Shown: positions 6,499-8,734 of the stretch, piece by piece
How the letters are laid out: every line of letters starts with the position of its first letter
Numbering within the stretch: the stretch's first letter is position 1
Assembly: GCA_963716985.1 (NCBI GenBank)
Contig: OY970323.1
Span: 1,184,001-1,248,000, forward strand
Reading direction: 5' to 3'
Origin: an uncultured bacterium
GTDB lineage: Bacteria > Chlamydiota > Chlamydiia > Chlamydiales > SM23-39
DNA: 64,000 nucleotides
Position numbers and translations under genes: made by a program
The notes under the pieces: model-generated
Told to the model about the DNA's origin: nothing
Seen by the model: only the letters and a program-made list of their open reading frames with translations
Database searches by the model: none

Positions 6499-7314
6499 AT
6501 GGAATCGTCAAACGATCACAAACGTCTTTTTTTTGGATTTCACATCGCAGCTCCCTGGCCGGCGCCTCTTCCCGAGGGCAGGGTGATTGAAGAACATTTC
6601 CGCCACATGACGGTTGCCTTTTTGGGAGAGGTTCCCATTTCCGCTGTCGAGCTTCTCTTGCCGCTCTTTCCCAAACCCTCGTTTCGCATAGGGCCTACGG
6701 GGATTTTTGAAAAAGTCATTTTCTTGCCCAAACGCTTTTCTCGAGTTGTTGCGTGGCAGATTTGCTGGAAGGAAGATCTATTGGAAATCGAAACTTTTCA
6801 AGAGCAGTTTGCCTTGTGGCTTCATGAAAGCAATCTTCTATCTTTAGAAAAAGAAAGGCCCCATCTGCCCCATGTGACAGTTTGCAGAAAACCCTTTTCC
6901 AGACGATCTTGGGAAAGCAGTTTTTCACCTCTTCCCCTGATGGTGACCGGGTTTCATCTTTATGAAAGCTTAGGTTTTTCCCACTATCGCTCTCTGTGGG
7001 AATATCCCTTCATTTTGCCTTTTGAAGAACTTGCACATACGGCCGACATCGCATTTAAAATCCGTGGAAAAAACCTATCCGATCTTTATATGCATGCACA
7101 GATGGCCATCTGTTTCAAGTTTCCCTCTCTTAGCCCCACATTGCCGGAAAAACAAGACGTTGTTTCTATCGAGGATGTGGTGGAGAAGCTCAATGCTTGG
7201 ATCTCTCTTGTCGATCAAACGATGGGAAGTCCTATCAAAGCCGTCAGCTATCACGGCGATGCCCTGCCCAAAGAAAGCGATCTTTTGGAATGGGAGATGA
7301 TCGTCGATGTATGA
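6499..7314 (+). CDS. 2H phosphoesterase (ThpR / 2'-5' RNA ligase-like) fused to a C-terminal archease domain
   Basis: KRLFFG and two HxT motifs (HMTVAFLG, PHVTVCR). From ~7021: FEELAHTADIAF...IKAVSYHG...WEMIVDV, the archease signature. Start taken as the ATG at 6499. Confidence 0.8.
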   Translation: MESSNDHKRLFFGFHIAAPWPAPLPEGRVIEEHFRHMTVAFLGEVPISAVELLLPLFPKPSFRIGPTGIFEKVIFLPKRFSRVVAWQICWKEDLLEIETFQEQFALWLHESNLLSLEKERPHLPHVTVCRKPFSRRSWESSFSPLPLMVTGFHLYESLGFSHYRSLWEYPFILPFEELAHTADIAFKIRGKNLSDLYMHAQMAICFKFPSLSPTLPEKQDVVSIEDVVEKLNAWISLVDQTMGSPIKAVSYHGDALPKESDLLEWEMIVDV

Positions 7315-8734
7315 GATGAAAAAAATAGGCCCTGCGCTCTATTTATTGCCGCAAGAGGGCGGAATGAGGGTCCCGGGGCTTATTGTCGCAACTCAAGAGC
7401 TTCTTGCAGACGAGCAGATGATCGAAGCTCTCGAGCAGGTGCGCAATGTCGCTCATCTTCCGGGAATTGTAGGGTATAGCATTGCGATGCCCGATATCCA
7501 TTGGGGATATGGATTTCCGATTGGGGGCGTGGCGGCGATGGATGGTGAGGAGGGGGTGATCAGCCCCGGAGGCGTTGGCTATGACATCAATTGCGGTGTT
7601 CGTTTGGCGCTTCTTCCCGAAAAGCTGGAAAACATTTCTCCTGCCACGCTCCATCTGCTATTGAAAACCATCTTTCAAAAAGTGCCGTCGGGCGTTGGTT
7701 TTGGCCATCGAGGTTCGCAAGGGCTTAGCGATTCTGATTACAAAGAGATCGCAGAGAAGGGAGCGCTCTTCTCGATTGAGCATGGGCTTGGCTTTCCCGA
7801 AGATCTCGATCATATGGAAAGCAGGGGGGTGATTGAGGGAGGCGATCTTAGCCTCATCTCTTCTCGCGCTAAAGAGCGGGGCAGAAAACAGCTTGGCACC
7901 GTAGGATCTGGCAATCATTTTGTTGAGATTGGGGAAATCGAGAGCCTACTGCTTCCAGACATTGCCAAAGCATGGGGAGTAGAGGAAGGCCAAGCCTATC
8001 TGCTGATCCATACAGGTTCGCGTGGGTTTGGCCATCAAATCTGCCAAGACACTTTAGATGATTTTATGAAGCGAGGCTTTGCGAAAAACTTGCCCGACAA
8101 ACAGCTCGTAGCAGCTCCGATTCAAAGCGAGTCTGGAAAAAACTATTTTTCTCAGATGGCGGTTGCCGCAAACTTTGCCTTCAACAATCGACAGCAAATC
8201 CTTCATCTTGTGCGCGATGCATTCCACGAGGTGTGCGGCTTTCCCCGTGAAGAAATTCGCCTGCTCTACGATGTGACCCATAACATTGCCAAATTTGAAA
8301 CCCATCTCGTGAATGGAGAGGCGCGCAAGCTTTGCGTCCACAGAAAGGGGGCGACGCGTTCTTTCGGGCCCGGCGCTGAAGAATTGTCCCCTATCTATCG
8401 AAAAACCGGCCAGCCGGTCATTGTGCCCGGAGACATGGGGCGGGCAAGCTTTCTTCTCGTTGGGCAGGGGCAAGAGCTCACATGGTCGAGCTGCTGTCAT
8501 GGGGCAGGAAGGGCAAAAAGCCGCATTGCTTCCTCAAAAGCATGGAAGGGCAAGGATCTGAAAGAATATATGAAAAAAAGAGGGGTCGAAGTGGTGGCGG
8601 TTTCGAATAAGACCATCGCGGAAGAGATGCCCGATGCCTATAAAGACGTTTGTCTGGTAGTAGACGCTGTGCAAGAGGCAGGCCTTGCCCGTATTGTCGC
8701 AAAGCTACGTCCTCATCTAGTTCTGAAAGGATAG
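7307..8734 (+). CDS. rtcB: RNA ligase RtcB
   Basis: MPDIHWGYGFPIGGV, GVGYDINCGVR, GSGNHF, IHTGSRGFGH, HNIAK, VHRKGAT, PGDMG, HGAGR, EEMPDAYKD; ends LVLKG. Confidence 0.96.
   Translation: MYEMKKIGPALYLLPQEGGMRVPGLIVATQELLADEQMIEALEQVRNVAHLPGIVGYSIAMPDIHWGYGFPIGGVAAMDGEEGVISPGGVGYDINCGVRLALLPEKLENISPATLHLLLKTIFQKVPSGVGFGHRGSQGLSDSDYKEIAEKGALFSIEHGLGFPEDLDHMESRGVIEGGDLSLISSRAKERGRKQLGTVGSGNHFVEIGEIESLLLPDIAKAWGVEEGQAYLLIHTGSRGFGHQICQDTLDDFMKRGFAKNLPDKQLVAAPIQSESGKNYFSQMAVAANFAFNNRQQILHLVRDAFHEVCGFPREEIRLLYDVTHNIAKFETHLVNGEARKLCVHRKGATRSFGPGAEELSPIYRKTGQPVIVPGDMGRASFLLVGQGQELTWSSCCHGAGRAKSRIASSKAWKGKDLKEYMKKRGVEVVAVSNKTIAEEMPDAYKDVCLVVDAVQEAGLARIVAKLRPHLVLKG

Follow-up and report, generated by a model that had tools for sequence, protein, structure and literature searches.

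The RtcB ligases of Thermus thermophilus and Pyrococcus horikoshii are archease-dependent (PMC4604427), and activation by the P. horikoshii archease requires His9, Asp12, Lys117, Asp141 and the terminal residue (PMC3973293). In the human complex, D51, K156, D178 and the terminal carboxylate of archease serve activation, and the binding of archease and of RNA to human RTCB is mutually exclusive (PMC10944509). RtcB has also been described as opening the cyclic phosphate itself. The 2H phosphoesterase ThpR, which the extended motifs HxTxxF and HxTxxR separate from other 2H enzymes, leaves in Escherichia coli a 2'-phosphate, an end not sealed by RtcB, and its role in bacteria is there left to speculation (PMC4201822); RtcA recyclises 2'-phosphates (PMC10630183). 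Here we describe a gene of an uncultured Chlamydiota bacterium in which a ThpR-type 2H phosphoesterase is fused to a shortened archease and which runs into rtcB. It lies in a window of 64,000 nucleotides (contig OY970323.1, positions 1,184,001 to 1,248,000), and all coordinates below are positions in that window. We read the two genes, with a probability of roughly one half, as a module for RNA breaks in which the archease half would recharge RtcB while the ThpR half acts separately, a pair that reseals broken RNA or retires it. The features of the fusion gene are as follows.

6499..7314, plus strand: fusion gene, ThpR-type 2H phosphoesterase plus shortened archease, 271 amino acids (single open reading frame, homologues, predicted structure)
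6499..7014, plus strand: 2H/ThpR domain, residues 1-172 (TIGR02258, E 1.3e-7; Z 14-15.5 against LigT/ThpR structures)
6604..6621, plus strand: first extended 2H motif HxTxxF, H36-M-T38-V-A-F41 (H36 and T38 in 120/120 homologues, F41 in 119/120)
6871..6888, plus strand: second extended 2H motif HxTxxR, H125-V-T127-V-C-R130 (H125 and R130 in 120/120; position 127 Thr in 107, Ser in 13)
7015..7314, plus strand: shortened archease, residues 173-271 (PF01951, 33.3 bits; alignment with full-size archeases; fold matches)
7036..7047, plus strand: archease H180-T-A-D183 (H180, A182 and D183 in 120/120; lost with rtcB; in the predicted interface)
7237..7254, plus strand: archease K247-AVSYH (K247 in 120/120; in 68/68 sequences with rtcB and 4/16 without)

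Conservation counts out of 120 refer to the 120 listed of 205 fusion homologues. An earlier note, made from the DNA letters alone, had proposed one continuous frame with a complete ThpR-like and a compact archease domain, and this description holds: the 271-residue frame carries all the motifs. In profile searches the archease half passes the Pfam gathering threshold (33.3 bits against a cut-off of 25), and the 2H half stays below the curated cut-offs (17.5 of 23.3 bits for PF02834; 31.7 of 65.7 bits for TIGR02258, albeit with an E value of 1.3e-7). By its score under the TIGR02258 equivalog cut-off, the 2H half is thus ThpR-like and not a curated ThpR equivalog. A profile built from the 120 homologues found both E. 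coli ThpR (E 5e-6) and Thermotoga maritima archease (E 6e-5). The AlphaFold model of the fusion (pLDDT 95.6, pTM 0.91) has LigT/ThpR structures as its best seven fold matches (Z 13.7-15.5, rmsd 2.8-3.4, 156-166 residues aligned); over modelled residues ~5-173 these include 1vdx (Z 15.5, rmsd 2.8, 160 aligned) and 5ldi (Z 14.5, rmsd 3.0, 160 aligned). Residues 172/181-271 of the model match the archeases 1j5u (Z 9.3, rmsd 2.9, 86 aligned) and 8btx (Z 8.6, rmsd 3.5, 96 aligned), so that profile and structure searches agree with the note's assignment of both halves. Alignment with three full-size archeases places a gap of ~32 internal residues between D239 and K247, and the 99-residue fused archease is without the full ~140-residue, two-repeat body.

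A sequencing error as the origin of the fusion can be rejected, since the architecture is conserved among 205 homologues, of which the 120 listed span 94-100% of the query, and 239 cluster representatives match at E<=1e-30. A longer version starting at TTG 6454 is disfavoured, as the listed homologues are mostly 252-295 residues long and their alignments begin at residues 1-9. By motif, all archease activation residues are present (H180, D183, K247, D270 and V271 before the stop). H180 and D183 correspond by motif and spacing to His9 and the metal-binding Asp12 of P. horikoshii archease, and K247 corresponds by motif to Lys117 of P. horikoshii and K156 of human archease. F11, the equivalent of Phe8 in ThpR, and D270 and V271 are each found in 119 of the 120 homologues.

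The strongest evidence on how the two halves relate to RtcB comes from genomes that have lost the ligase. For this comparison we used 89 genomes from a whole-genome search, picked by kinship, low score or absence of rtcB and not by motif. The 80 loci that had been found with archease-tip patterns were kept out of the count, as were G411 (no fusion frame upstream of rtcB), G029, G384 and G385 (fragments) and G104 (a marginal match). The tip was called intact when it had H180, D183 or Glu, K247 or Arg, and a terminal Asp-Val or Asp-Ile. Of 70 genomes in which rtcB is adjacent, 69 have an intact tip and the single exception is frameshifted; of 19 in which no rtcB is adjacent, 17 have a decayed one. 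In the 70 rtcB-linked genomes the 2H motifs are intact in one frame in 66, deleted in two (G080 and G159) and interrupted by a frameshift or stop in two. Both 2H motifs are nevertheless retained in 15 of the 17 genomes with a decayed tip (in G089 with a frameshift after the motifs) and lost in two. The two rtcB-less genomes that keep the tip are G125, in which the gene is split over two contigs and no RtcB was found, and G154, which still has 25 codons left over from the start of rtcB and in which rtcB loss therefore seems to be recent. No full-length RtcB of any type was found in ten of the 17 decayed-tip genomes, and the other seven encode a distant or different RtcB elsewhere. On a tree built with FastTree from the 2H region, decayed tips occur at six places, or at least five when weak support is allowed for; one clade contributes ten of the 17 genomes, which are thus not independent.

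The two halves can also be followed residue by residue. When 68 single-frame sequences with rtcB are set against 16 without, fourteen archease positions prove conserved in the former and lost in the latter, while the 2H site, P174, F175, G190, A200, A203 (in 16/16), L204 and F206 (in 15/16) are retained after the loss. After rtcB loss, dN/dS values from a simple Nei-Gojobori count were 0.06-0.23 for the 2H half (10 of 12 pairs measurable) and 0.10-0.46 for the archease half (9 of 12), and by these ratios the 2H half is under purifying selection in the rtcB-less pairs tested. This natural experiment, in which the loss of rtcB separates the archease tip from the 2H site, is what is new here. As side observations, G076, whose fused archease has decayed, encodes a different RtcB, behind which lie genes for a CobW-type GTPase and for a stand-alone, full-size archease of 140 residues (L150:1360-4118), and G385 and G384 have short remnants of both fusion and rtcB, a module decaying as a whole (loci L139, L140 and L152, which also cover G314, described below).

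We also modelled RtcB with the fusion, GTP and Mn in three runs and compared the result with controls. The archease half docked, with a score of 0.73 (runs 0.82, 0.21 and 0.73) against 0.00 for the best control; of solved pairs, 116 of 157 reach the mark that this score passes, as do 2 of 215 mismatched ones, and these figures apply only approximately to this complex. The runs share at least 79% of their contacts, with a partner pLDDT of at least 84, although the pass may stem from the model's memory of the solved RTCB-archease complex. All 25 confident interface residues on the fusion belong to the archease half and cover 12 of the 14 rtcB-dependent positions. No 2H residue lies within this confident predicted interface, the residues outside the confident set being uncertain and a 2H contact among them conceivable. 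In the predicted structure the first archease helix packs on the 2H sheet and gives a rigid two-domain body. Covariation between T67 and M202, P19 and F206, and F62/I64 and H199 (318 effective sequences, 265 columns) is shallow and partly reflects shared loss, and we take it as weak support for this packing and nothing more. Taken together with the characterised relatives, the co-decay of the tip and the predicted interface make it very probable that the archease half activates this RtcB, as the earlier note had supposed.

The RtcB in question and its junction with the fusion are described by three further features.

7307..8734, plus strand: rtcB, 475 amino acids, Thermus/Pyrococcus (archease-dependent) type (PF01139, 507.7 bits)
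7306..7314, plus strand: terminal Asp-Val-stop of archease (D270-V271), likely metal ligands, whose codons enclose the rtcB ATG at 7307
7292..7296, plus strand: likely rtcB ribosome-binding site GGGAG, inside the W265-E266 codons (codon bias; anti-Shine-Dalgarno in the 16S 3' end)

The closest solved relatives of this RtcB are those of T. thermophilus (E 5e-140) and P. horikoshii (E 4e-133). Its residues D93, C96, H204, H235, H325, K347 and H398 are invariant in 69/69 sequences, and by motif spacing all of these except K347 were matched in their metal and guanylylation roles to human residues (D119, C122, H227, H259, H353 and H428, in the same order). The fusion and rtcB overlap by 8 nt. A GATGTN-stop junction is found in 80/80 of the loci collected with archease-tip patterns, and an ATG stands at the junction in 64 of the 70 genomes selected without the motif. 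GGGAG sits ten bases upstream of this ATG, and the 16S 3' end bears a complementary anti-Shine-Dalgarno sequence. The codon for Glu266 is GAG in 52/60 sequences, against 485/1316 (37%) of the Glu codons elsewhere in those genes, and that for Asp270 is GAT in 67/68 against 76% elsewhere. From the junction ATG, the GGGAG and the bias at these two codons, it is therefore likely that translation of rtcB is initiated within the archease C-terminus, and the translational coupling claimed from the overlap alone is borne out. A scan for promoters and terminators gave sites no more numerous than in shuffled sequences.

The relatives of the fusion are mostly environmental Chlamydiota, and an Atlas cluster of 254 members likewise has Chlamydiota as its commonest phylum. 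The fusion profile matches 182 of 401 Chlamydiota genomes and none of the 30 in one family. Scored at E<1e-150 among 400 Chlamydiota genomes, this RtcB type is present in 158, of which 157 carry the fusion; 203 genomes have neither. In the 80 loci inspected (of 178), rtcB directly follows the fusion in 77, and the remaining three stop within 50 nt of a contig end. Besides rtcB no neighbour is common to most of the 80 loci. In a set of 150 cluster representatives, both sites are present in 105, the 2H site alone in 32 (fragments being possible) and the tip alone in four, and nine are partial. Several records are labelled Verrucomicrobia; of five checked, three have an RtcB of the same type (62-68% identical), which is why we consider these labels probably misfiled, and RtcB is broken in one and was not found in one. 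In G314, whose genome is 88% complete, this RtcB type is present and no archease was found. A larger operon was considered and rejected: the metallo-beta-lactamase and methyltransferase genes upstream recur in 2/80 neighbourhoods, and tag and DUF4160 in 0/80. A mobile element or defence system was rejected as well, with no fusion match in plasmids, phages or viral contigs.

In the mechanism that we favour, the shortened archease half would dock in the RtcB active site, supply a third metal and promote guanylylation with GMP; by analogy with characterised relatives, this guanylylation would depend on Mn and GTP and allow multiple turnover. The ThpR half would on its own open those 2',3'-cyclic phosphate ends that had not been resealed, giving, again by analogy, a 2'-phosphate that RtcB could not join. 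Both enzymes would meet a single pool of nuclease-cut RNA and either reseal or retire it, with no hand-over of RNA between them, and translational coupling may fix the ratio of fusion to RtcB. Separate actions are favoured because the 2H half is selected without RtcB, because RtcB works without 2H in two genomes and because human RTCB cannot bind archease and RNA at once. Splicing of tRNA introns was rejected as the purpose of the module: four ARAGORN intron calls have inserts of 194-2178 nt and look spurious.

The substrate channelling that the earlier note had drawn from the fusion is not supported by these observations, though gating of ligation or a recycling of 2',5' links, two more of its suggestions, may apply. 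The 2H half is conserved after rtcB loss, 2 of the 70 rtcB-linked genomes keep archease and RtcB although their 2H site is deleted, the confident predicted interface is free of 2H residues, archease and RNA are mutually exclusive on human RTCB, and bacterial archease occurs in fusions with 13 unrelated domain types, as described below. A version with switched chemistry, in which the 2H half yields a 3'-phosphate and passes this end to RtcB, sparing the ligase its own hydrolysis step, would make sense of the physical fusion, the translational coupling and the divergence of the 2H half from the ThpR cut-off, and some other 2H enzymes do leave 3'-phosphate. However, the residues that hold the 2'-AMP pose in ThpR (F11, H36, T38, F41, H125 and R130) are conserved in 119-120 of the 120 homologues, and with these ThpR-specific residues kept, a 3'-phosphate product, one of the note's suggestions, is unlikely; by analogy with ThpR, the 2H half is instead likely to be active and ThpR-like, with a 2'-phosphate product. 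Since RtcB opens the cyclic phosphate unaided, since its archease and its RNA are mutually exclusive in the human enzyme and since the interface lacks 2H residues, channelling with switched chemistry appears very improbable.

How much the fusion by itself can tell was examined with a full-size archease, that of a Cmk fusion described below, as query among proteins of 194-618 residues. In 74 of the 90 long proteins found (P0270-P0359), archease is accompanied by another Pfam domain, of 13 types in all, including Cmk (34), HAD (15), phosphoribosyltransferase (10) and HemD (3), and also Mut7-C, CapA, NAPRTase, IMPase, RuvX and others. In two Chlamydiota genomes, a fusion of Cmk (cytidylate kinase) with a full-size archease lies near a different RtcB (L213:763-1908 and L214:1498-2670). 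Archease is thus a promiscuous C-terminal module that needs a free C-terminus and tolerates N-terminal passengers, and because it is fused to 13 unrelated domain types, fusion alone is weak evidence of function. The 2H half could accordingly be such a passenger, just the upstream gene at the time of fusion, acting for instance on 2',3'-cyclic mononucleotides from RNA decay while archease serves RtcB; 2',3'-cAMP has been tried as a substrate of E. coli ThpR (PMC4201822). The retention of 2H without rtcB, and of archease and RtcB in G080 and G159, where the 2H site is gone, would be expected of a passenger as well. Yet the fusion is fixed across the phylum and remodelled, with an archease ~32 residues shorter, its first archease helix stays with 2H after rtcB loss (A203 in 16/16, F206 in 15/16), 2H and RtcB act on the same chemical group, and ThpR is rare in genomes that lack the module. 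On balance we find the passenger explanation doubtful, though worth keeping in view.

A further alternative is linkage editing: by transesterification, the ThpR half would break 2',5' links and leave a cyclic phosphate with a 5'-OH, the very ends that RtcB joins, and archease-charged RtcB would reseal these as 3',5' links. E. coli ThpR incises 2',5' and not 3',5' links, with cutting favoured over joining (Arn and Abelson 1996, via PMC4201822). Such linkage editing requires no altered active-site chemistry, removes the paradox of an enzyme that destroys its partner's substrate, would release the product beside a freshly charged RtcB and agrees with the co-occurrence of fusion and RtcB in 157 of 158 genomes. 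However, ThpR also converts the cyclic product by hydrolysis into a 2'-phosphate dead end, with a preference for water as nucleophile on single strands, and 2',5'-linked RNA is not known in E. coli according to the same paper (PMC4201822). The 2H half is moreover kept without RtcB, where cuts would stay unsealed (the ten decayed-tip genomes in which no full-length RtcB was found). We judge this alternative unlikely; if true, it would amount to a dedicated 2',5'-to-3',5' RNA backbone repair pathway and give ThpR a physiological job.

It is important to note that several observations sit uneasily with a module of separately acting enzymes. A maker of 2'-phosphate tied to a ligase activator should destroy the substrate of the ligase. 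Any ThpR-like match occurs in just 6 of 219 genomes without the fusion; ThpR is thus found mostly together with this RtcB. A closer partnership would fit this, but so would a single deletion of the two adjacent genes. Of the 70 rtcB-linked genomes, 66 keep the 2H site across ~40% sequence identity, the 2H site has also decayed in the rtcB-less G312 and G353, and one of the three RtcB-fusion model runs reached just 0.21.

Enzymes that might process the same ends were also sought. RtcA (PF01137) was not found in this genome (99.5% complete, with positive controls), nor was Tpt1, and TIGR02258 has one match in it; a genome search with PF13563 missed even the fused 2H domain and is thus a weak test. 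RtcA occurs in 7 of 401 genomes, all of them with the fusion, and was not adjacent to rtcB in the five loci seen. In one clade of relatives (L217-L220) RtcA lies directly behind a P-type ATPase-like gene, not near rtcB. Several relatives (L203-L205, L207-L210 and L212) have a second, stand-alone ThpR-like gene, mostly beside a conserved chlamydial gene of ~165 amino acids, and in several of these copies the HxT motifs look altered.

Elsewhere in the window, a metallo-beta-lactamase-fold gene and a DOT1-like methyltransferase gene (4780-6436) lie upstream of the fusion on the same strand, as they do in L021, L075 and L102. Downstream of tag, a DUF4160-DUF2442 gene pair (9398-10027), a likely toxin-antitoxin module, is not conserved beside the fusion and rtcB. 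Tandem paralogues of ~445 amino acids occupy 1584-2912 and 2930-4267, one with a weak DUF4347 match and the other without a Pfam match. A reading frame with three internal hydrophobic repeats of ~55 amino acids (16765-17673) has a shorter paralogue at 19887-20387, and a frame between them (18055-19545) resembles a transposase by eye.

With the ThpR-archease fusion and RtcB, a system of two proteins is available for asking whether ThpR gates ligation, cleans up after it or feeds it. The shortened archease may be a near-minimal RtcB activator. The repeated losses of rtcB mark residues that serve the ligase apart from structural ones, a pattern that bears on the residue-by-residue co-evolution of archease and RtcB, a question raised in PMC13247085. 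The many unrelated archease fusions call for caution in reading function from fusion alone. In line with the note's remark that the fusion was uncharacterised as far as known, no description of a ThpR-archease fusion was found in the literature searched; the work of Burroughs and Aravind (2016) on RNA repair systems lies outside that scope and could list the architecture.

Among the closest known systems is the archease-rtcB operon of P. horikoshii, T. thermophilus and other prokaryotes, with adjacent genes, the same RtcB type and an archease with the His, Asp, Lys and C-terminal Asp and a free end (PMC3973293, PMC4604427). There, however, archease is a protein of its own of ~140 residues, whereas here it is the C-terminal ~99 residues of a larger protein, has ~32 fewer internal residues and is joined to a 2H domain, and both the rtcB start and the likely ribosome-binding site lie within its last codons. 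With E. coli ThpR/LigT and P. horikoshii PH0099 the 2H half shares the fold (Z 14.5-15.5), the HxTxxF and HxTxxR motifs and the Phe8 equivalent (PMC4201822); it differs in having ~23% identity and a score below the TIGR02258 cut-off and in being fused to archease and linked to an RtcB, while the RtcB of E. coli cannot use the ThpR product (PMC4201822). The interface predicted here uses the same conserved tip residues as the complex that human RTCB forms with Archease, where archease is full-size and free-standing, with no phosphodiesterase attached (PMC10944509). Like the E. coli rtcBA operon, the locus would co-express an end-modifying enzyme with RtcB; however, RtcA makes the RtcB substrate and ThpR would consume it, and no RtcA was found here (PMC10630183 for rtcBA). 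Finally, the bacterial fusions of archease to Cmk, HAD, phosphoribosyltransferase or HemD likewise have an unrelated enzyme at the N-terminus and leave the C-terminus of archease free. Those inspected keep a full-size archease, whereas the ThpR fusion is shortened, is predicted to be integrated into one body and extends across the phylum.

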